The position numbers and the translations under genes were made by a program. The notes beneath the pieces are model-generated. The model searched no databases and was not told where the DNA came from. It worked only from the letters and a program-made list of their open reading frames with translations. Positions 5,069 through 64,000 of a stretch of 64,000 nucleotides of DNA are shown in pieces (the stretch's first letter is position 1; the number at the start of each line of letters is the position of its first letter). The stretch lies in the NCBI GenBank assembly GCA_011911785.1, contig GCA_011911785.1_4084.1. One strand, given 5' to 3'. The stretch comes from a phage.

Positions 5069-6118
5069 ATGAACTCAGTACAAGACATTATGGCACAAAT
5101 CATGAATGACCCTGTACCTGGTATTGGTATATGGGCACACCACAACTGTCCTATGTGTGTGTTTCGTGGACATTCAAGACCTGATGTAAAGGGTCGTGGT
5201 AATCATATGTTTAATTCTGATGGTTCAGTATCTTATAACTGTTTTAACTGTAGTTTAAAGACAGGTTGGCAACCTGGAAAATATATGAGCAAAGATATGG
5301 AGTCTTTGCTCATTTCTTTTGGTGCACAACAAAAAGATATAGAATTATTAAAATTTTACATAAAAGAAATGGTAGAGAGTGGTGATTATGCTGAACAAGA
5401 GTCTACCACATCGAAGTTATATCAAAGGGTAACAGCACGCGATTTACCACCTAATTCAAAGACATTTTTTGAATGGGCTTCAGATGATAATGCACCCAAT
5501 GAATTTTTTAGTGTACTGAATGCAGTAAATGACCGAAATCCATATCTATTGGATTTGGAATTATATTGGAGTCCATCTAAAGAACATAAAATGTATGATA
5601 GATTTATTATACCTTACTATATGAATGGTAAAATAATTGGGTATACTGCAAGACATAAATTAAAAGACCCAGGAAGTACGTATCGTTTTATTAATCAGGT
5701 AAGTACTAATATTTTGTACAATTATGATTTGTTGAATGATGAACGTATAAAAACTTTATTGGTATGTGAAGGACCAATGGATGCCGCATTGATGGGTGGT
5801 GTATCAGCAAATAACTTTAAGTTATCTACACCACAGATTGAAATACTTAAACAGGCACAGAGTAAAGGTAAAAAAGTAGTAATTGTACCAGACAGGGATA
5901 AAGATGGATTAGTGACAATTGACCAAGCATTAGAGCATGGTTTTAGTGTTGCCTTTCCAAACTTTGGAGCCGTAAAAGAAGGTAGTGGTATTCGTCACAT
6001 AAAAGATTTTGACGAAGCCTGTGCCAAATATGGTCGTTTATTTTGTCTACAACTAATACATGAAAGTATAGTTGACGAACCTTTCTATATCAAAGCACAA
6101 ACCGATAAATGGATGTAA
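5069..6118 (+). CDS. DNA primase (T4 gp61-like; zinc ribbon plus TOPRIM)
   Basis: N-terminal CPMC...CFNC zinc-binding motif; TOPRIM signature LVCEGPMDA ... VIVPDRDKDG; immediately upstream of the helicase. Confidence 0.8.
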   Translation: MNSVQDIMAQIMNDPVPGIGIWAHHNCPMCVFRGHSRPDVKGRGNHMFNSDGSVSYNCFNCSLKTGWQPGKYMSKDMESLLISFGAQQKDIELLKFYIKEMVESGDYAEQESTTSKLYQRVTARDLPPNSKTFFEWASDDNAPNEFFSVLNAVNDRNPYLLDLELYWSPSKEHKMYDRFIIPYYMNGKIIGYTARHKLKDPGSTYRFINQVSTNILYNYDLLNDERIKTLLVCEGPMDAALMGGVSANNFKLSTPQIEILKQAQSKGKKVVIVPDRDKDGLVTIDQALEHGFSVAFPNFGAVKEGSGIRHIKDFDEACAKYGRLFCLQLIHESIVDEPFYIKAQTDKWM

Positions 6119-6136
6119 AAGAAATAAGGGAATATA

Positions 6137-7663
6137 ATGATTCAAAGCACAGTGGACGTCAAACAATATGGGATTAATGCCCAACAATATCTATTATCAC
6201 AAATTTTCAGTAACCCAGATTTATATGTACGCTGTAAAAATATTCTTAAACCTGAATATTTCGATAGCACTTTTCATGAAAGTATTAAATTCGTTCATGA
6301 TTACAGTGCAAAATATAGTGCATCACCAACTTTAAAAGATATTGAAGTTAAGGGTGGTTTTGCATACGATAGTACTGAAGTAAGTGAGCTACACAAGCAA
6401 TCAGTACTTGATACATGCAGTGAGTTCTGCCGACACAAAGCACTAGCTTTAGCTGTTGAGAAAGGTATGGAGTTAGTACATCAGAAAAAATATGGTGGAA
6501 TCGAAGAACTAATTCGTGAAGCTATGCTTGTTTCTGTACAAAACGAACTAGGTCTGGATATCTTTGAAAATCCAGAAGATACAATTCGCTCACTAAGTAC
6601 GATGCAAGGTTCATTCAAGAGTGGTTGGGAAACTCTGGACTTTAAACTGTTTGGTGGTTTCGGTCGCCGTGAACTTGAGATCTTCGCAGCAGCATCCGGT
6701 GGTGGTAAATCAGTTGTTCTGCAAAACTTAGCAGTAAACTTTGCTAAAGCTGGACTGAACGGTGCTTACATTTCATTAGAACTTGCTGAAGAGTTGGTTG
6801 CAGTCCGTATCTATGGTATGATGACTGAATCCAAATTGAGTAATGTTAAACATGAAGCAGACCGAATTGGTTTACAAGTACAAATGGAAGGTAAAAACAG
6901 TGGTGTAATGCGTATCAAGCGTTTGCCTGAATCTGTGACAACAACAGATGATATTGAAAGTTACCTTCGTGAATTACAAATCAAATTGGAAATTAAACTT
7001 GATTATGTTTGTGTGGACTACTTAGATCTATTAACATCTAATCGTCTTGGTCCAAATGATAAATCGAATACATTTACCAAAGATAAGTTTGTTTCTGAAG
7101 AATTGCGTGCTCTAGCAACTAAGATGGATTTAACTGTATTCACTGCATCCCAGTTTAACCGTAGTGGTATGGGTGAAGATAAGAAAAGCCAAAGTCAGAT
7201 TGCTGGTGGTATTTCAAAGATCTATACCGCAGATAACGTAATTTACATTGAAGCACGAAAAGAAACTGGTGAGATGTGGTTCGACTTCCAGAAAACACGT
7301 AACAGTAGTGCAGTTGGTTCTCGTTTGCGTATGTCTTATGACATTGATTCATTACGTGTGTTGGACCATGCAACAACCATTCAGCAATTCGAAACCGATG
7401 GTTCTGGGTTCAAGCATAGCGGACTAACAAAGGTCGGTGGTGGTAACATGGCACTCCCCCCAACCACTATGCAAACATTGCGTCACACGCTTTCTGGTGC
7501 ACAAAAACCAGTACAAACACAAAGTACTGTTGAAGCTGATGACGTAACACTAAATACAGAAAATGCTACACTTTCTAGCACTACAGAGGAAACCCAACAA
7601 CCTGTTAATATTGGCACTAATCGTGCGAATATGATGAAACAATGGTTGAATCAAAGGAAATAA
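6137..7663 (+). CDS. replicative DNA helicase (DnaB / T4 gp41-like)
   Basis: Walker A AASGGGKS; Walker B-like CVDYLDLL; RecA-fold helicase motifs; 508 aa. Confidence 0.85.
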   Translation: MIQSTVDVKQYGINAQQYLLSQIFSNPDLYVRCKNILKPEYFDSTFHESIKFVHDYSAKYSASPTLKDIEVKGGFAYDSTEVSELHKQSVLDTCSEFCRHKALALAVEKGMELVHQKKYGGIEELIREAMLVSVQNELGLDIFENPEDTIRSLSTMQGSFKSGWETLDFKLFGGFGRRELEIFAAASGGGKSVVLQNLAVNFAKAGLNGAYISLELAEELVAVRIYGMMTESKLSNVKHEADRIGLQVQMEGKNSGVMRIKRLPESVTTTDDIESYLRELQIKLEIKLDYVCVDYLDLLTSNRLGPNDKSNTFTKDKFVSEELRALATKMDLTVFTASQFNRSGMGEDKKSQSQIAGGISKIYTADNVIYIEARKETGEMWFDFQKTRNSSAVGSRLRMSYDIDSLRVLDHATTIQQFETDGSGFKHSGLTKVGGGNMALPPTTMQTLRHTLSGAQKPVQTQSTVEADDVTLNTENATLSSTTEETQQPVNIGTNRANMMKQWLNQRK

Positions 7664-7666
7664 CGA

Positions 7667-7939
7667 ATGGCTAATGAATCCAGTAAAAAGAATCTACTTG
7701 ATAGTATAGTAAATTATACTCCAGAGAAGGATACATTGCAGAGTTTTGGTAATAGGGCCGACCATGCCATAAATTCTGTAATTCATTTATTGGAGAGTAT
7801 AGATAATGAGTTTAATAGTATTGATGCTGAAGATTTAAAGAAACGATTATTTTTGAGTATCAAGAACCGAGATTACAAAAAGTTTCAGAAGGGGTTGGAA
7901 AATATAGCACTGGATGAAAAACGTAATAAAGGTAATTGA
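7667..7939 (+). CDS. hypothetical protein (90 aa)
   Basis: ORF track. Confidence 0.5.
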   Translation: MANESSKKNLLDSIVNYTPEKDTLQSFGNRADHAINSVIHLLESIDNEFNSIDAEDLKKRLFLSIKNRDYKKFQKGLENIALDEKRNKGN

Positions 7940-7940
7940 T

Positions 7941-8099
7941 ATGAAAAAGAAATTAAAAGAAAATGCTTCAGCAGGTGCTACCTCGGCAGGGGCAGTTGCA
8001 TCAATCAGTACTGGATTAAATTATCCATTACTCAAACGTATTCCTCCAACCAATTTCTTTGGGTATAAAGAATATAAAATTAAAAAGGATAAGGAATGA
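7941..8099 (+). CDS. hypothetical small protein (52 aa)
   Basis: In-frame ATG at 7941 just after previous stop; ORF-track start 7914 lies inside the previous gene. Confidence 0.4.
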   Translation: MKKKLKENASAGATSAGAVASISTGLNYPLLKRIPPTNFFGYKEYKIKKDKE

Positions 8100-8488
8100 A
8101 ACCATATACGTTCTACACTATTAATACCGTTGTAGATATAGGTGATGGTAGTACTCCAACTATAATCGATTCAAAATTCACAGGTGCTATGAATTTGTCC
8201 CGATTACTTGAAGCAATCATGGTGCATGATTATCCAATGATGGTAAGTGTTGTTAGAGATGAAGTTGATTTGACTAAAGGAAACAATTCTGAATTTTACA
8301 GCTTACCATCGTCATGGGGAAAATGTATTGTTAGTACTTTCAAATTTGCATTACCAGTTGATGTTAATTTGAGATTAAATGGAATACCATTAGTACTACC
8401 TACAGTGGTTAATAATAACCGCATTACAAAATTTATCACAACGAATTGTACTCGTAATATTAGCATCAGTAAACAGACCTTTTCTTAA
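8096..8488 (+). CDS. hypothetical protein (130 aa)
   Basis: ORF track; ATGA overlap with previous ORF. Confidence 0.5.
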   Translation: MKPYTFYTINTVVDIGDGSTPTIIDSKFTGAMNLSRLLEAIMVHDYPMMVSVVRDEVDLTKGNNSEFYSLPSSWGKCIVSTFKFALPVDVNLRLNGIPLVLPTVVNNNRITKFITTNCTRNISISKQTFS

Positions 8489-8541: not shown

Positions 8542-9498
8542 ATGGACATGCAACAAACCGCAAGCGAACTACAGAAGTTTGCTGATGCTCATGGAATGAA
8601 CATCGATGTGGCAATTATTATTGATAATATGGATGCAGGTGATTTCGTTGCTCTTAATGGTGCAATGGATAATTCAGACAACCGTACAATTATGCAATTG
8701 CTACAAAAATATAAAGCACATATGAGTGAGAGTTATAATTATTTTAGCCCAACCAATTTTATGAAACACATCAACGAATCATCTGAATTGTGTTCTAAAG
8801 TTGACTCAATGAGTGCGAAAGAATTAACCGAACATTATCGTTCAATGAACACCTACTGTGATGTATCCAGTCTTAGTATTCAAGAACTTAAAGCTTTGGT
8901 TTTTGAAGATATCACTTCACAGCTAAAATCAAATCAAGCCGTGAATATGAACAATAATACGCAACAAATGAATCCACAAACACAAGCAAAACTTAAACAA
9001 GCGGAATTACAAAAGAACGCTAATAATATGCAAGTTACTGTTCCTGGGTCACAATCTGGAACTGATGCTGTTGAGCCAGTCGTTGGTGTTGATATTGGTG
9101 CAACCCCAGACCAATCTTTGGTTATTACAAAAAATGGTAATAAACCAAATGAATTAAATGTATTTTCACTTGATGATGTAACTCCGGTTGATATGCAAAA
9201 TCAAAAAGTTACTGAAGATCAAGAAACCCGTGTTTCTGATGAAAAAGACCCCAATGAAATCAATGATGAATTGATGGCTCCCCCTGATAATGCAGGTCTT
9301 TCAACCGATGAACCAAGTGACTCACCATTGACCAATCATCAGCCTGGTATGGGTGAGATGATTCATGCAATCAATGATATTGAGAAAGAAGAAGACCTTT
9401 CTGGTGAAGAAAGTCAAATGGGTAATAGTGCTCAATCGGATAATGATGATATTATTAACCAAATTATTGATGCTTGTTCGAGAATGAGAGGACTATAA
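8542..9498 (+). CDS. hypothetical acidic protein (318 aa)
   Basis: ORF track; GGAG RBS; Asp/Glu-rich C-terminal half. Confidence 0.55.
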   Translation: MDMQQTASELQKFADAHGMNIDVAIIIDNMDAGDFVALNGAMDNSDNRTIMQLLQKYKAHMSESYNYFSPTNFMKHINESSELCSKVDSMSAKELTEHYRSMNTYCDVSSLSIQELKALVFEDITSQLKSNQAVNMNNNTQQMNPQTQAKLKQAELQKNANNMQVTVPGSQSGTDAVEPVVGVDIGATPDQSLVITKNGNKPNELNVFSLDDVTPVDMQNQKVTEDQETRVSDEKDPNEINDELMAPPDNAGLSTDEPSDSPLTNHQPGMGEMIHAINDIEKEEDLSGEESQMGNSAQSDNDDIINQIIDACSRMRGL

Positions 9499-38932: not shown

Positions 38933-39747
38933 GAATTTTAAATATGTTGAAATCTCTACATGAAAGTACTAAATTGGTTCAGGATGAAAAGTATCGTCGC
39001 AGTACTACAAAAGATTTAGCTTGTAGAATGTATATGCGTAGATTTGAGATTTCAAGGATTGGTAAGGGATGGGATGACATTAAACGTGATGATATCGATC
39101 CCGATGCAATCTTTAAAGCATATATGGCACGAAAGGTTTTCATTAATGAAAAAACATTTTATATTGACAGTGATAGAGAACGTGAAGTACAATTCACAAA
39201 AGGATTGTGGAAAATCTGGTGCATTGAGACATTTGGTGAGTTGTTACCTGAACCACCAGTACCAGAGACGTACAAAGAACTAAAGAACATCTTTGATAAT
39301 GAACATATACATATGAATTTTTCATTATATGAGACTGTCAATGAGGCATTGTTCTATGGTGAACTACACGGTCATAATGAATATTTTAGTTCTATGGTAG
39401 AGTTTGATTTGTTTTGTCATTTACCTGGGGTACAAAGCTGGACATCTGATCAGTACAGAGCCAGTAAGGTTGACAAACGTAAATTTTCAGCACAGAGATT
39501 TGTACAAGCAGCAATGGGTATGTATAAACTGGACTATCTGAACTGTCCAGAACCATATAAACATTTTTGGAAAGAAAGAGCACAGAAATGTTTAAACTAT
39601 GCTATCATACGTCTTATGGAAGTTTACATTTTAAAATTTAGGAATGCAACGGTGTATGATATGCCGGAGCCACCTAAAGATGAGAAGTACCCACCAGTTA
39701 AGGGTTTCAACTGGTACAGAGAGAAGAACAACAAAGGGACGTGCTAA
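38929..39747 (+). CDS. hypothetical protein (272 aa)
   Basis: ORF track; ATGA overlap. Confidence 0.5.
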   Translation: MRILNMLKSLHESTKLVQDEKYRRSTTKDLACRMYMRRFEISRIGKGWDDIKRDDIDPDAIFKAYMARKVFINEKTFYIDSDREREVQFTKGLWKIWCIETFGELLPEPPVPETYKELKNIFDNEHIHMNFSLYETVNEALFYGELHGHNEYFSSMVEFDLFCHLPGVQSWTSDQYRASKVDKRKFSAQRFVQAAMGMYKLDYLNCPEPYKHFWKERAQKCLNYAIIRLMEVYILKFRNATVYDMPEPPKDEKYPPVKGFNWYREKNNKGTC

Positions 39748-39762
39748 GGTGCGTCCTTTTTT
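39734..39762 (+). terminator. intrinsic terminator overlapping stop codon
   Basis: AAGGGACG-(10 nt)-CGTCCTTT stem followed by TTTTTTC. Confidence 0.5.
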
Positions 39763-39772
39763 CATTTAGGTG

Positions 39773-39801
39773 TTGACAATACTAATCAAGTTAGATAGAA
39801 T
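39773..39801 (+). promoter_or_regulatory. sigma70-like promoter (TTGACA-N17-TAGAAT)
   Basis: TTGACA at 39773-78 and TAGAAT at 39796-801. Confidence 0.55.
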
Positions 39802-39840
39802 AGCATTATTGATTTACTATTAATTAAAAAGAGGCTGATG

Positions 39841-40959
39841 ATGAAAGGAAAATATTTTTTCATTGAGAACAAACAAGAAATTGAAATCCAAGAGTTTGAT
39901 TACCAGTTTGTGTTGAATTCATTACTGAAAAAGTATGATCGTCGCGACAATAAAAAGTACTTTTATAATGTAATCGTAAAACGTACTTATGATTCAATGG
40001 GAAATCCCGAATTTGATGTTCGTAATTTAGAACTATCAAAAATTTACTATTCAAACACACGTTTGAATATGTTAGATCTCATGAAAGATGAAATTCATTT
40101 TAAAAATATTCAGATTCGTGATTTACCAGTGCCCCCACTTGAGCGTGAATACGAAGCATGGAAAGAAGGTCGTCTTAAACCACGTCCAGAACTTGCAGTG
40201 GTTGAAGTGCCAGCACCAATTGTTCTGACTAAAACACCAATTGATCCAGAAGATGAACGCATTGCGGATATCGAACAATGGATGGAATTTCCTGAAACTA
40301 TTAAAAAGGATTCTGTAAAAGTACTGGATTGGTTCGTAAACTTACCAGTATGTGCACAGGAAGTTGGTGTGAAGATTCAAAAAATTTCAGAGCGTCAATT
40401 GGACCTTAATGATGCATTACATAAGCATAGTGATTATGTTAGAACATTAATGAATAACTTAACCACTGCACTTGAATCGTTATTCCCATTGAAACCAACA
40501 TTTACACAAAAACTGTTTGGTAAAGCTGATATAAAGGTTCAACAGGCCGATTTACCTAAAGTAATGAAAGCATTGAATGATGCAGTGAAATATGATACGA
40601 ATAAGTTTAGTGGTTTAACTTCATTGTTTAATGAAATTCGAACTGAAGTTCGTGATATTAAAGATGAATTAGAATACGGAAAAATTGGGTGTGAGTATGC
40701 TATTCGTCGTTTGGATGATGCATTTGAATATGAACTGACTCTTGAACGTATCATGAAAATGAGCATTACCGCCGCAATGACTGAAGCTAGTATCGTTAAT
40801 GTGAGTAAACAGTATCAGATTGATATGAATAGAATGGTAGATATCCAAACTATTACTATTCCGTTGATTATCAATCGTTTACAGACACAAGTTGGAAAAG
40901 CAGTAGACGCAGATACCGCCGCGATCATTCGCAACTTAGCTTACGGCGATAAAGAGTAA
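39841..40959 (+). CDS. hypothetical protein (372 aa)
   Basis: ORF track; GAGG RBS 6 nt upstream of second ATG. Confidence 0.55.
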   Translation: MKGKYFFIENKQEIEIQEFDYQFVLNSLLKKYDRRDNKKYFYNVIVKRTYDSMGNPEFDVRNLELSKIYYSNTRLNMLDLMKDEIHFKNIQIRDLPVPPLEREYEAWKEGRLKPRPELAVVEVPAPIVLTKTPIDPEDERIADIEQWMEFPETIKKDSVKVLDWFVNLPVCAQEVGVKIQKISERQLDLNDALHKHSDYVRTLMNNLTTALESLFPLKPTFTQKLFGKADIKVQQADLPKVMKALNDAVKYDTNKFSGLTSLFNEIRTEVRDIKDELEYGKIGCEYAIRRLDDAFEYELTLERIMKMSITAAMTEASIVNVSKQYQIDMNRMVDIQTITIPLIINRLQTQVGKAVDADTAAIIRNLAYGDKE

Positions 40960-40968
40960 AAATAGTTG

Positions 40969-41016
40969 TTGACATAACTGTGTGTTGCTCGTATAATGTT
41001 TATCACAGAGCAACAC
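40969..41016 (+). promoter_or_regulatory. consensus sigma70 promoter with flanking inverted repeat
   Basis: TTGACA at 40969-74, TATAAT at 40992-97; 9-bp inverted repeat GTGTTGCTC (40982-90) / GAGCAACAC (41008-16) brackets the -10. Confidence 0.6.
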
Positions 41017-41044
41017 TATCTTAAATTAAATGAGGAATAACCTA

Positions 41045-42172
41045 ATGTCCGAGAAAGAAATCAATCCAAAAAAAGCAACTACCAAAACTTCTAAGCGTAC
41101 TACGACCAAAACCAAAGGTAATACTTTTGATGCGAGTGATATTTTCGACCAACAGTCTAAGACGTTACCAGTACTGAAAGATACAAAAGGTAACACTATG
41201 TCTTTAACTGTTCAGAACATTAACACCATTGGAACAACTGCTGGTGCAGGTGTCGGACGACTGGCTGATGAAATCATGTCAAAAGTGAACGTCACTGATG
41301 ACAATACTGAATTTGGTAAATCAATTACCACAATTTTATCACTAACCCGTGCTGTTGATATTGACAGTCTACAAGATGATAAATCAATTGTAGGTTGGGT
41401 CAAAAAACTCTTTGTCAATGCAAAACAGAAAGTTGGTGATCAGTACAAGAATAGTAAAGAGCAGATTGATGAAATCATGAACACACTCCAGGTTGGTATC
41501 AATCGCCAACATAGTGAATGTGAGTGGTTGGATACTGCTTACAATGAGAATAAAGCCTATCTATTTGAATTACGCGATACGCTGGTTGAATTGGAACAAG
41601 TTACAAAAACTCAAGATGCTAAACTGGAAGAAATGCAAGCGAACCCTGATGTGGATTCTTTCGCAATCCAAGAGCAGAAGATGATTTGTGAAGCATTGTC
41701 TAAACAGGAAGATAAGATTCGCCGTCTTATCATGATGTGTGAGCTTAGTGGCCCTCGTCTGATGAGTATGAAGAAAGTGAATCTAAACACTGTATCTAAA
41801 TTTGAAGATCTGAAATCTGTTGTCATCCCTGCATGGAAATCACAACTAGCAGAACAATTGATTTCTGAACGCCAACGCAAAGATAATGAGTTGGGTAATT
41901 TGATTGATAATGAAACTAACCGTTTACTTGAAGTGAACTCCAAAATGGTAGCAACTAATATGTTAGATGCTGCTAAAGCTAATAACCGTGGTATTGTGGA
42001 TATTAAAACATTGCGTAACGTACACAAAACAATGATCGATAGCATCGAAGCAGTACTGATTGAAGAGAAGAAAGGTAAGGAAGAACGTGAACGTGCTAAA
42101 CATGAAATTGCACAGTTGTCCTACGAACTTGAAGAAACTCTTCGCGAAATTGCTGACAAAGCTAACAAGTAA
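41045..42172 (+). CDS. hypothetical coiled-coil protein (375 aa)
   Basis: ATG 41045 with GAGGAA RBS; largely alpha-helical/coiled-coil composition. Confidence 0.55.
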   Translation: MSEKEINPKKATTKTSKRTTTKTKGNTFDASDIFDQQSKTLPVLKDTKGNTMSLTVQNINTIGTTAGAGVGRLADEIMSKVNVTDDNTEFGKSITTILSLTRAVDIDSLQDDKSIVGWVKKLFVNAKQKVGDQYKNSKEQIDEIMNTLQVGINRQHSECEWLDTAYNENKAYLFELRDTLVELEQVTKTQDAKLEEMQANPDVDSFAIQEQKMICEALSKQEDKIRRLIMMCELSGPRLMSMKKVNLNTVSKFEDLKSVVIPAWKSQLAEQLISERQRKDNELGNLIDNETNRLLEVNSKMVATNMLDAAKANNRGIVDIKTLRNVHKTMIDSIEAVLIEEKKGKEERERAKHEIAQLSYELEETLREIADKANK

Positions 42173-42175
42173 TAG

Positions 42176-42212
42176 TTGACATATAAATGTGCCCATTGTA
42201 TAATGGGCACAT
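42176..42212 (+). promoter_or_regulatory. consensus sigma70 promoter with -10 at centre of a palindrome
   Basis: TTGACA at 42176-81, TATAAT at 42199-204; palindrome ATGTGCCCATT-GTAT-AATGGGCACAT (42187-42212). Confidence 0.6.
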
Positions 42213-42240
42213 ATTTTATTAATTATCTAAGGATAATATG

Positions 42241-42939
42241 ATGGCAGATAAAGTTACACACTATGCAGTTGATATTGAATCTTTCGGAACTCCAGAACGT
42301 AGTGGTTATGATATTACCATTCCAAATTACGCAATTGTTTTAGTTCCAACTAACCCAATGAAAGATATCTCACGTTATGCATATGTTAAACTACCATTCC
42401 AAAAACAAATTGATGCTGGTCTTAAAGTTGATGCAGGTTCAATGAACTTTTGGATGAATATGTGTCAAAATGATCATAAAGGTGCATATGAAGAAGTAGT
42501 TAGTACACTCACGTTGACAGAACCAGAAATTATTTCCGGTAGTCAAAACAATTTGTATAAAACAAAAAATGTACTTGATTTGTGGAATGCACTTCGTTAT
42601 GATCTTAATGGAAATGAGAACAATATTGAAATTTGGGGTAATGGCTGTCACTTCGATTGTAGTATTCTTCAAGCAAACCATCGTAAAATGTTTGGTGTGG
42701 GCGAATTGTGGAAATACAATGCACCACAGAATGCCCGAAGTGTTAAGAATCGCCTAACTGAAGATGAAAAATTTGACATGGATTCCATTGTTGATGTACA
42801 ATTGAAAAAGTTTGTGGAGATGGTTGCTGATCATGGTCTTTATGGTCTAGAACTTCACCACCCATTATTCGATGCAGCACGTGAAGCTATCCAGGTTTCA
42901 TATTGCTTAAATGCAATCAACGAACGCGGAAACTATTAA
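42241..42939 (+). CDS. dexA: DEDDh 3'-5' exonuclease (T4 DexA-like)
   Basis: Exo I VDIESFG, Exo II GCHFDCSIL, Exo III HHPLFDAAREA; about 232 aa, similar to T4 DexA. Confidence 0.7.
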   Translation: MADKVTHYAVDIESFGTPERSGYDITIPNYAIVLVPTNPMKDISRYAYVKLPFQKQIDAGLKVDAGSMNFWMNMCQNDHKGAYEEVVSTLTLTEPEIISGSQNNLYKTKNVLDLWNALRYDLNGNENNIEIWGNGCHFDCSILQANHRKMFGVGELWKYNAPQNARSVKNRLTEDEKFDMDSIVDVQLKKFVEMVADHGLYGLELHHPLFDAAREAIQVSYCLNAINERGNY

Positions 42940-42949
42940 AGGTAACACA

Positions 42950-44047
42950 ATGAACTTAGCAATTCTTCTAATACCAAGTTTGATAGTTGTTCTAATCATG
43001 AAGTTCAAATACCATACTGCCATAACAACAAAGGAATTGCTAATTCATACTGGAATTTGCTTTCTTGCAGCGGTGTTGGTATTGGGAACATCATACTTGA
43101 TAAACTACAGCCAACTTCGTGATGTTGAAATTCTAAATGGTCAGGTTACAGAGAAATACAGCCAACGTGAGAACTGCACATCACAATCAAGTTCTTGTAA
43201 ACACTATACTTGGCATGAGCGTTGCTGGACTACCTATGATTCTAAAGGTCGCTCACAACGTGAATGTGAATCTTATAAGGTATTCGACTATCCGTATGAG
43301 ATTGATTGGTACGTTAAAAGCACTGTTGGTAAGTTTGAGATTGAAAGGGTCAATAGACAAGGAACACAAACTCCACCACGCTGGCAAGAAGTGAAAATTG
43401 GTGATTATGCAGCAGCAGAAAACACATACATAAATTATCTATTTGCAGATAAACACTCATTATTCAGTACTGAAGATTTGATTTCTATGTATGATAAAGA
43501 ATATCTGGAATCTTTACCTGAATATCCAAGTATTAGTGATTATTATAAAACACACCACGTTATTAATAAAACTGATTACGATGTGAGTGGGTATGATGAA
43601 TATTTACGTGAAGTGTTAAAAACATTAGGTGCACAAAAGCAAGTAAACATTCAAGTACTAGTATATGATTATCATGACGTGAATTTTGTTGATGCAGTAA
43701 CCTCAATCTGGCGTGGTGGCAAGAAGAACGATGTGATTATGTTCTTTGGTATCAGTAATGATGGTGTCGTTAAATCATTCAATAGTACGTCATTCGCTAA
43801 AGGTATGAATAATGAAGAATTGCATTCTAAAATGCGAATGGATGCGTTAAATGAAGTATTAACACTTGACTTACTTAAAGTTCAGGTTCATAATATACAG
43901 ACTAAGTTTGAACGTCTGTCGAATAAAGAGTTTGAATACATGGCAGTTAAAATGGAACCACGAAAAGATGTTATGATTGCTGCATCTTTGATTCTCATTG
44001 TACTGTCGATTGTTGTTGGTCTTTATATGAAGGAAAATAATGTATGA
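42950..44047 (+). CDS. membrane protein with N- and C-terminal TM helices and Cys-rich middle (365 aa)
   Basis: ATG 42950; hydrophobic N-terminus and C-terminal IAASLILIVLSIVVGLY. Confidence 0.5.
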   Translation: MNLAILLIPSLIVVLIMKFKYHTAITTKELLIHTGICFLAAVLVLGTSYLINYSQLRDVEILNGQVTEKYSQRENCTSQSSSCKHYTWHERCWTTYDSKGRSQRECESYKVFDYPYEIDWYVKSTVGKFEIERVNRQGTQTPPRWQEVKIGDYAAAENTYINYLFADKHSLFSTEDLISMYDKEYLESLPEYPSISDYYKTHHVINKTDYDVSGYDEYLREVLKTLGAQKQVNIQVLVYDYHDVNFVDAVTSIWRGGKKNDVIMFFGISNDGVVKSFNSTSFAKGMNNEELHSKMRMDALNEVLTLDLLKVQVHNIQTKFERLSNKEFEYMAVKMEPRKDVMIAASLILIVLSIVVGLYMKENNV

Positions 44048-44598
44048 ATAAGCCTCTGATTTTGTTGGTTGGTGTGTTGGTGATTTTTGTTATTGGTGTG
44101 TTTGCAACTGTAAGTATGTATAGTTCAGCACATGATAGTGCAGTGAATTTTGAAGGTAATATTAAAAAGTACTACGATGCATCTGAAAGTCAACTGAGCA
44201 GTTATACACTAACTATTCAAGAAAAGGTTCAAGTATCGGACAAATATAAGGATGCATTGAAAGAGACAATCGAAGCGTACTTTAAGGGACGTGAAGGAGT
44301 TGATCAGAAATTTGTAATGTCACAGATTCAACAACAAGTTCCAAATCTTGATCCTAAGATTTATCAAGAGTTGATGGTTACAATTGATGCAGGGCGTGAG
44401 AAGTTCAATAACTTGCAGAAAATGAAAATTGAACAATGTACTGATTATGAGAAATTCCGTAAAGGTTTCTGGAACTCAAAAATCATCGATTCTAATACAT
44501 TCCCAAGTAAAGATATTGAACATTTGTGTACTGTTGTTTCTGATACTCGCACTAAGAAAGCAATGGAAACTGGTATTCAGGAAGTAATTAAATTGTAA
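44044..44598 (+). CDS. membrane-anchored protein (184 aa)
   Basis: ORF track; N-terminal TM helix; ATGA overlap. Confidence 0.5.
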   Translation: MNKPLILLVGVLVIFVIGVFATVSMYSSAHDSAVNFEGNIKKYYDASESQLSSYTLTIQEKVQVSDKYKDALKETIEAYFKGREGVDQKFVMSQIQQQVPNLDPKIYQELMVTIDAGREKFNNLQKMKIEQCTDYEKFRKGFWNSKIIDSNTFPSKDIEHLCTVVSDTRTKKAMETGIQEVIKL

Positions 44599-56302: not shown

Positions 56303-56473
56303 ATGAGTCTGAGTGAATCCTGGAAACAGTTCAAAGAAGAGATTGGTTATCGTGGTGTATCGATTGAACCAATCAATCGTACTGAAAGCATTAAGGCCAG
56401 TACTAACGGTACTACCTATGACCGATATGACCCACGATACGGGTTACATGAAGAAGTCAAAAAAGAAGATTGA
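56303..56473 (+). CDS. small ORF (56 aa)
   Basis: AAGGGG RBS upstream of ATG; ends just before terminator 56482-56511; below ORF-track cutoff. Confidence 0.45.
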   Translation: MSLSESWKQFKEEIGYRGVSIEPINRTESIKASTNGTTYDRYDPRYGLHEEVKKED

Positions 56474-56481
56474 CAATATAT

Positions 56482-56511
56482 CGAGAGTGTGTGATAATAC
56501 TCTCGTCTTTT
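56482..56511 (+). terminator. intrinsic terminator
   Basis: CGAGAGT-(10 nt)-ACTCTCG hairpin followed by TCTTTT. Confidence 0.6.

Positions 56512-63464: not shown

Positions 63465-64000
<536 letters not shown>

Follow-up and report, generated by a model that had tools for sequence, protein, structure and literature searches.

A putative KlaA-type paralogue upstream of TelA in an Asteriusvirus jumbo phage, with each gene in its own predicted promoter and stem-loop cassette

The 64,000-nucleotide (nt) stretch of phage DNA analysed here in full (the window; contig GCA_011911785.1_4084.1) belongs to an Asteriusvirus jumbo coliphage; the 2.6 kb used as query are 98.6% identical to Escherichia phage A4, a 355-kb Rak2-like jumbo myovirus of the same genus. 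Two adjacent genes are the subject of this report: gene 1 (A4_93 in phage A4, labelled 'hypothetical protein') and gene 2 (A4_94, labelled 'TelA-like protein' in this nearest GenBank record). Both open reading frames (ORFs) were confirmed as given in an original prediction made from the sequence alone, including the start of gene 1. The frame of gene 1 may open at 39838 or 39841, and the latter is taken as the start because 27 of 27 aligned homologues begin with MKGK and the spacing of AGAGG at 39830-39834 fits. For gene 2, GAGGA at 41032-41036 together with homologue N-termini (MSEKE...) favours the start at 41045 over an in-frame ATG further upstream at 41030. The genes, their regulatory elements and the related loci are listed in Table 1.

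Table 1. Features of the gene 1-TelA locus and of two related phage loci. Positions refer to the window, except for KP13-16 and XaC1, where they refer to the extracted locus; aa, amino acids.
Feature	Position	Strand	Description
Intrinsic terminator	39733-39760	+	12-bp stem, U6 tail; -16 kcal/mol, z -3.9
σ70-type promoter of gene 1	39773-39801	+	TTGACA-17-TAGAAT, 11/12
Gene 1	39841-40959	+	372 aa; α/β N-domain, linker, putative KlaA-like C-terminal helical domain
Gene 1 C-terminal domain	aa ~159-369, nt ~40312-40944	+	putative KlaA-like truncated TelA-superfamily helical domain
σ70 promoter of TelA gene	40969-40997	+	TTGACA-17-TATAAT, perfect, 12/12
Inter-gene stem-loop	40982-41016	+	arms GTGTTGCTC / GAGCAACAC, 9 bp; -14.3 kcal/mol, z -3.4
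Gene 2	41045-42172	+	375 aa; full-length TelA-family; basic disordered aa 1-40, then long helices
σ70 promoter after gene 2, for exoribonuclease unit	42176-42204	+	perfect, 12/12
Terminator hairpin after gene 2	42187-42212	+	11 bp, U-rich tail; -16.8 kcal/mol, z -4.2
3'-5' exoribonuclease	42238-42939		Pfam Rv2179c-like
Membrane protein, 365 aa	42950-44047		phrog_2087, function unassigned
Membrane protein	44044-44598		phrog_1383, 'virion structural protein'
KP13-16 short form	6001-6879
KP13-16 TelA	6890-7966
XaC1 short form	6001-7005
XaC1 TelA	7015-8121

By profile comparison, gene 2 is a bona fide TelA. It matches Pfam PF05816 (TelA, toxic anion resistance protein) with 131.5 bits, where the cutoff is 30, and an E-value of 4.9e-38, covers profile positions 14-331 of 332 and passes the membership threshold, which verifies a resemblance that had been noticed only vaguely from the sequence. 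In addition, it matches phrog_5890 ('tellurite resistance'), and its homologues include bacterial TelA/YaaN proteins. The AlphaFold2 model places helices at residues 64-103, 118-199, 205-313 and 321-373 behind a disordered basic N-terminus, in agreement with TelA as a soluble, all-helical protein without transmembrane segments, at a predicted local distance difference test score (pLDDT) of only 65.8. TelA-like genes occur in at least 286 phage records from many lineages, and PHROGs assigns them to the broad bin 'moron, auxiliary metabolic gene and host takeover'. TelA has already been noted as a 'standalone' gene in gammaproteobacterial jumbo phages, where it was proposed to compete with superinfecting phages, and is described as forming sub-membrane structures (Iyer et al. 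2021, PMC7824862); its mechanism is called unknown in a recent paper (PMC12791056). The phAPEC6 virion and PA5oct omics papers do not mention TelA.

For gene 1, the sole family match is phrog_13312, whose function is unassigned ('hypothetical'). A word-indexed search returned 34 full-length relatives, five of which carry a source name, all of them either Rak2-like jumbo phages or E. coli records, while the remainder are metagenome or read-archive contigs; an exhaustive profile search of 1.84 billion representatives returned only 30 proteins. Distant relatives of approximately 250-340 aa match the C-terminal helical region alone. The AlphaFold2 model is confident (pLDDT 86.3) and consists of an α/β domain at residues ~1-110, a linker, and long helices at 159-369. 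The N-terminal α/β domain is specific to the gene 1 family. The description of both products as large helical proteins thus holds for gene 2, which is essentially all helix, and for gene 1 only from about residue 159 onwards. When the gene 1 model was searched with Foldseek against a viral library, its own family was recovered first, then Caulobacter-phage proteins, and then a phage 'tellurite resistance protein' (probability 0.96, E 0.055).

Solved structures yielded no candidate that was retained. With both models, Foldseek against the PDB gave nothing below E 0.02 and generic helical bundles only (ClyA, AhlC, CorA, YscO), and PDB sequence searches with single proteins and profiles gave only marginal coiled-coil matches such as HA2. 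The gene 1 and gene 2 profiles both match the influenza HA2 coiled coil marginally (residues 36-117/126; E ~0.03, non-significant), and the two matches sit at positions that correspond to each other in the gene 1-TelA alignment. This shared match probably reflects coiled-coil composition, though it is consistent with a common register.

The kinship of gene 1 to TelA and KlaA was assessed by profile comparison. BLASTP of gene 1 against gene 2 was not significant. With hhalign, the gene 1 family profile matched the phage TelA family profile at E 0.0057 with the first alignment. Greater diversity in the gene 1 alignment improved this to E 4.7e-5 (score 44.1, probability 68%), with residues ~170-353 of gene 1 placed opposite residues 60-272 of TelA; 42 reversed, column-shuffled or block-shuffled control profiles scored 20.0 or less. 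Furthermore, 120 single ORFs, taken from the window and from nine other loci, were compared with the gene 1 profile, and the best non-family scores belonged to RP4 KlaA (39.8), an IncHI2 KlaA-like protein (34.1), the TelA of the window (31.2) and a Caulobacter-phage Ter-cluster protein (28.3). These four matches extended over 122-145 aligned columns, compared with scores of at most 25.8 over at most 44 columns for unrelated ORFs. The strongest match was obtained with a KlaA family profile built from 20 members (E 3.7e-6, probability 87.3%, 137 columns), and single KlaA-type sequences gave E 4.1e-5 (RP4 KlaA) and 3.4e-4. For calibration, the same tool gives the accepted KlaA-TelA pair a probability of 95%. 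One register runs through the three alignments, which have two motifs in common (KPTFTQKLFG / KPTWFEKMLG / VGWVKKLF and IPLI / VPVW / IPAW). An hmmsearch of the gene 1 profile against TelA reached only E 0.038.

The homology of KlaA and KlaB is published (PMC5696584), and KlaA itself passes the Pfam TelA threshold (41 bits) yet spans only positions 40-247 of the 332-position profile. Gene 1 shares with KlaA its similarity to the N-terminal and central two-thirds of TelA, the last TelA helix being absent, and, like klaA, it immediately precedes a full-length TelA gene of the same orientation. It departs from the single-domain form of ~255-270 aa typical of KlaA through its length and its added α/β domain. 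Altogether, the C-terminal domain of gene 1 is very probably a KlaA-type, C-terminally truncated TelA-superfamily domain. Because gene 1 fails the PF05816 gathering threshold, it is to be regarded as a remote relative within the superfamily and not as a Pfam TelA member. The original prediction treated both genes as being of unknown function; gene 2 had in fact been annotated as TelA and discussed for this phage group (PMC7824862), and gene 1 would now join it as a KlaA-like paralogue. What is new here is the kinship of gene 1, the TelA gene and the promoter style being already known.

The pair is kept across Rak2-like relatives and also appears, in a shorter form, elsewhere. In relatives down to 40-44% identity, gene 1 is followed by TelA, the exoribonuclease, a ~360-aa membrane protein and a ~184-aa protein, in this order, and the gene 1-TelA pair is likewise kept in PBECO4, Muenster, PHA46 and fHe-Yen9-04. 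Short-form relatives of gene 1, ~290-340 aa long and with disordered N-termini, were found in two unrelated phages, Klebsiella phage KP13-16 (137 kb, Stephanstirmvirinae) and Xanthomonas phage XaC1. In both, the short form lies 9-10 nt upstream of TelA and directly 3' of two TerD genes, and in KP13-16 a TerC/Alx gene is also nearby. The short-form protein P0114 matches phrog_13312 at E 4.6e-24.

Further observations concern these relatives. The motif Y-x-N-[LI]-F (YKNLF, YSNLF, YNNLF) recurs three to four times in the short forms, within their disordered N-terminus, and is present once in the TelA adjoining a short form, at its extreme N-terminus (MSYGNLF); a partner common to the two proteins may dock there. 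The phAPEC6 (MK817115) gene that matches P0114 is annotated as 'S-layer domain-containing protein', an annotation for which no support was found here. In Caulobacter phage CcrSC, the hypothetical protein gp246c (291 aa; 8608-9483 of the extracted locus) stands at the end of a cluster of TelA, TerF-like vWA, TerC and TerD genes and weakly resembles the C-domain of gene 1, with E 0.003 in hhalign and E 0.085 in hmmsearch. Among the Caulobacter-phage proteins matched by Foldseek (E 0.0025-0.0067), the one from CcrBL9 is likewise 291 aa long, and gp246c may itself be another divergent relative within the gene 1 family. The genes upstream of TelA in phAPEC8 (SprT-like), Lactobacillus phage Dionysus, phiPsa300 and CcrSC were also considered, and none belongs to the gene 1 family.

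Each gene forms a predicted monocistronic cassette bounded by PeSL-type promoter and stem-loop elements. The claim of dedicated perfect or near-perfect promoters with 17-nt spacers was borne out for both genes. Three perfect TTGACA-17-TATAAT sites occur in the window against 0.02 expected, and 17 sites with at most one mismatch, all on the + strand, against 1.94 expected; with spacers widened to 16-18 nt, 24 sites lie on the + strand and one on the - strand. At the position of the gene 1 promoter, PBECO4, Muenster, PHA46 and one further relative (L002) carry a site with one to two mismatches, and the promoter is weak or absent in Yen9-04 and another relative (L003). The TelA promoter has zero or one mismatch in all seven Rak2-like lineages examined. 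Promoters of σ70 type in Rak2-like and T4-like phages are taken as early and dependent on host RNA polymerase (PMC5259590, PMC2839356), a view that the CBB genome paper reached by inference for the RpoD-like promoters of Rak2-like phages (PMC5259590). On this basis, early timing and high expression of both genes are inferred.

The two genes had been described as separated by terminators. This description is correct for the flanks of the pair, where a terminator closes the upstream transcription unit immediately 5' of the gene 1 promoter, with a counterpart in PBECO4 and Muenster, and a second hairpin follows gene 2. It does not hold between the genes. Because the inter-gene stem-loop encloses the TelA -10 box, together with the predicted start site, and has no proper U-tract, it is attenuator-like rather than a classic terminator. 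The 5' untranslated region of TelA is unstructured (-2.8 kcal/mol, z 0.3). The hairpin after gene 2 overlaps the -10 box of the promoter that precedes the exoribonuclease, so that the two form a composite element at 42176-42212; a terminator follows TelA in all seven lineages, and a promoter at that place is present only in Asteriusvirus. Elsewhere in the window, at 56470-56505, the -10 box of a promoter-like TTGACA-17-GATAAT site lies within a 9-bp hairpin that leads into a U-tract (-12.8 kcal/mol, z -4.5), the same design as in this composite.

The stem at the TelA -10 box is kept in seven of seven lineages with seven different arm sequences. These stems are uninterrupted and 6-11 bp long, with the 5' arm ending no more than 4 nt from the -10 box or no more than 3 nt inside it, and the 3' arm lying 11-20 nt downstream of the box. 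A MAFFT alignment of the promoter region left the 3' arms out of register, and the stems were scored directly with shuffles, which gave modest per-lineage frequencies (0.0005-0.45). The argument for conservation is therefore based on the placement kept in all seven lineages under changed sequence, and not on the per-lineage shuffle frequencies. Most of the seven stem copies have no U-tract. The stem may act as an attenuator, as an RNA-processing or stability element for the gene 1 mRNA, or as a feature at the DNA level.

These intergenic elements fit the PeSL type known from T4-like phages, in which a strong σ70-like promoter is combined with a stem-loop, mostly in the spacer that separates -35 from -10 or overlapping the latter, and serves as promoter and terminator or attenuator around single accessory genes (PMC2839356, PMC4122927). 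Strong σ70-like sites stand directly upstream of each unit in intergenic space (11/12, 12/12 and 12/12). Of the published placement classes for the stem, namely upstream of -35, between -35 and -10, and overlapping -10 (PMC2839356), the first is represented by the terminator before gene 1 and the last by the inter-gene stem-loop and the hairpin after gene 2, which enclose or overlap the -10 box.

Taken together, the phage pair appears to be the same tandem as klaA-klaB, with which the kilA (klaABC) operon of IncP-1α plasmids opens. Its function is more tentatively assigned: on balance, the pair is probably a phage-borne module of a KlaA-like and a KlaB(TelA)-like protein, early and membrane-associated, for competitor exclusion or envelope protection. 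Host RNA polymerase would transcribe both genes strongly right after infection, in a manner resembling the 15-36-fold induction of klaABC when RP4 enters a new cell (PMC7314908). The gene 1 protein and TelA would come together on the cytoplasmic side of the inner membrane, and the altered envelope state would make the infected cell resistant to superinfecting phages, incoming plasmids and colicin-like agents or, alternatively, to envelope stress during a long infection cycle. The stem-loop at the TelA -10 box would most likely damp read-through from gene 1, so that the dose of each gene would be set by its own promoter. This functional reading is advanced because of the FiwB fertility-inhibition phenotype (PMC5696584), the induction of klaABC (PMC7314908), the Ter/TelA model of Iyer et al., in which TelA belongs to sub-membrane structures (PMC7824862), and the antibiotic phenotypes of TelA and XpaC (PMC12791056, PMC6811118).

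Several observations weigh against this reading, the functional part of which is itself inferred. Gene 1 has no Pfam match at E ≤ 1 and no NCBIfam or PADLOC match, its Foldseek search against the PDB gave nothing significant, and its best profile-profile probability, 87%, stays under the 95% of the accepted pair. For gene 2, the model is only moderately confident, and neither PDB sequence and profile searches nor Foldseek with the model found a matching solved structure. No TerC, TerD or TerF was found within the window, and no KlaC/TelB counterpart was found 3' of the phage TelA in a comparison with the IncHI2 protein in the KlaC position. The pairing is not universal: the gene upstream of TelA is an unrelated one in many other phages, among them phAPEC8, Dionysus, phiPsa300 and CcrSC. 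Finally, an attenuator role for the inter-gene stem-loop is uncertain, given that it has no U-tract.

A more specific version of the same idea seems doubtful at present. In it, the pair would be an immediate-early exclusion device mechanistically equivalent to FiwB, with a stem-loop ratio switch and adaptor N-termini. Both paralogues would assemble with each other beneath the inner membrane and keep the DNA of rival phages or conjugative plasmids from entering, the stem-loop at the TelA -10 box would act as the switch that sets the ratio of KlaA-like protein to TelA, and as alternative adaptors to a third partner, such as TerD or a host protein, the short forms would use their Y-x-N-[LI]-F motifs and gene 1 its folded N-domain.

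Among the other explanations, self-protection is the least unlikely: the pair would act as an envelope-stress buffer of the PspA or TelA type, keeping the inner membrane intact and energised over the long infection cycle of a jumbo phage, or helping to set the time of lysis. Two membrane proteins follow within the conserved block, and xpaC-yaaN and yceH, which we take to be members of the σW regulon with its envelope-stress role, would be in keeping with such a function. These genes do appear in a σW regulon study (PMC3498285). Moreover, TelA/YaaN and XpaC are induced by, and aid tolerance of, membrane-active peptides such as nisin, garvicin and daptomycin (PMC12791056, PMC6811118). This evidence, however, stems from Gram-positive bacteria, and the nearest architecture, KlaA with KlaB, is tied to fertility inhibition and Kil phenotypes (PMC5696584). 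Nothing in the present analysis separates self-protection from exclusion.

The original prediction proposed both genes as candidate host-takeover factors. In this role they would be strongly expressed early proteins, toxic to the host, that contribute to its shutdown in the manner of the Kil phenotype of the kilA locus. The unrepressed kilA locus is reportedly lethal to E. coli, as Goncharoff et al. described in 1991, and the near-perfect σ70 promoters would suit such a role. Cloned PeSL promoters are also strong enough to be deleterious (PMC2839356). No specific support was found, however: no known host shut-off factor resembles either protein, members of the TelA family occur widely and stably in bacteria and plasmids, where they serve as determinants of resistance or tolerance, and the host-takeover label in PHROGs is only a broad bin. 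The known relatives act in competitor exclusion (FiwB, Ter) and envelope-stress tolerance, and profile searches placed both genes with accessory rather than housekeeping proteins. This proposal is accordingly judged distinctly unlikely.

It is less probable still that gene 1 is unrelated to TelA, the two proteins being convergent long helical bundles and their adjacency ordinary synteny within one phage clade. Such a view could draw on the failure of gene 1 to reach any family threshold, on the insignificant Foldseek result against the PDB and on the weak hmmsearch match to TelA. Against it, the reversed and shuffled controls are clean, the top four non-family matches of 120 are all proteins from TelA clusters, three independent targets share one register and its motifs, and in unrelated phage lineages the two genes are again neighbours, 9-10 nt apart. 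Lastly, despite the family name and annotations, a true tellurite or toxic-anion resistance gene that benefits the host as an auxiliary metabolic gene is hardly credible, as RK2 tellurite resistance needs all three kilA-operon genes and arises from klaC/telB mutation, a KlaC counterpart was not found here, and a virulent phage has no host to shield from environmental metalloid. Listeria telA mutants, in addition, change only 2-fold for tellurite (PMC12791056).

Upstream of the gene pair lie replication genes, and downstream the 3'-5' exoribonuclease is followed by the two membrane proteins, whose genes are translationally coupled and stay 3' of TelA and the exoribonuclease in every Rak2-like relative checked. 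NCBIfam and PADLOC gave no matches for gene 1, gene 2 or their neighbours. The 365-aa membrane protein was considered as a KlaC/TelB counterpart and rejected, showing no similarity to the IncHI2 protein in the KlaC position (BLASTP E 1.1) in a comparison made with that protein only. Near the end of the window, a near-consensus promoter (TGGACA-16-TATAAT; 63739-63766) stands before a tRNA-Ser gene (anticodon TGA; 63777-63866).

Recognition of phrog_13312 as a KlaA-type paralogue would turn the 'standalone TelA' into a two-component module common to plasmids and phages and would give a function-level annotation to a conserved jumbo-phage gene. The monocistronic, strongly promoted gene pair also offers tractable material for studying what KlaA and TelA do. 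The gain is incremental, and the finding is ordinary to modest in scale.

Comparison with known systems places the pair among several partial counterparts. In the XpaC-TelA(YaaN) operon of Firmicutes, TelA likewise has a dedicated upstream partner, with which it interacts genetically (PMC6811118); XpaC (PF10112), however, is a membrane protein unrelated to gene 1, and was rejected as a relative (hhalign E 0.24). The PeSLs of RB49/phi1, nt-1 and PST similarly combine an intergenic strong σ70-like promoter with a stem-loop on the flanks of single accessory genes. The elements of the window differ from them in residing in a Rak2-like jumbo phage instead of a T4-like one and in having stems that are not of the G-run/C-run type, that upstream of TelA being without a U-tract. 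Closer in gene content are the phage Ter/TelA clusters, where a partner of the phrog_13312 type stands directly upstream of TelA in KP13-16 and XaC1 and a weakly similar helical protein belongs to the Ter cluster of Caulobacter phage CcrSC (TelA-TerF(vWA)-TerC-TerD-gp246c). The KP13-16 and XaC1 partners are ~300 aa long with a disordered N-terminus of Y-x-N-[LI]-F repeats, whereas the N-domain of gene 1 is folded, and they are operonic with TelA (9-10 nt gap) beside TerD/TerC genes, none of which is present in the window.

The nearest counterpart is klaA-klaB (kilA/klaABC, FiwB), in which FiwB fertility inhibition requires KlaA, KlaB and KlaC (PMC5696584). Phage gene 1 differs from KlaA in its extra N-terminal α/β domain plus linker (~150 residues) and in falling short of the Pfam TelA threshold that KlaA reaches, and the phage genes form two monocistronic units with their own promoters, whereas the plasmid genes form one operon repressed by KorA and KorB. 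In each system, a truncated TelA paralogue, in gene 1 a putative one, is followed at once by a full-length TelA in the same orientation and is borne by a mobile element, and the tandem of the phage appears to be the same as that seen in the IncP-1α plasmids RK2/RP4 (klaA-klaB) and in IncHI2 plasmids.

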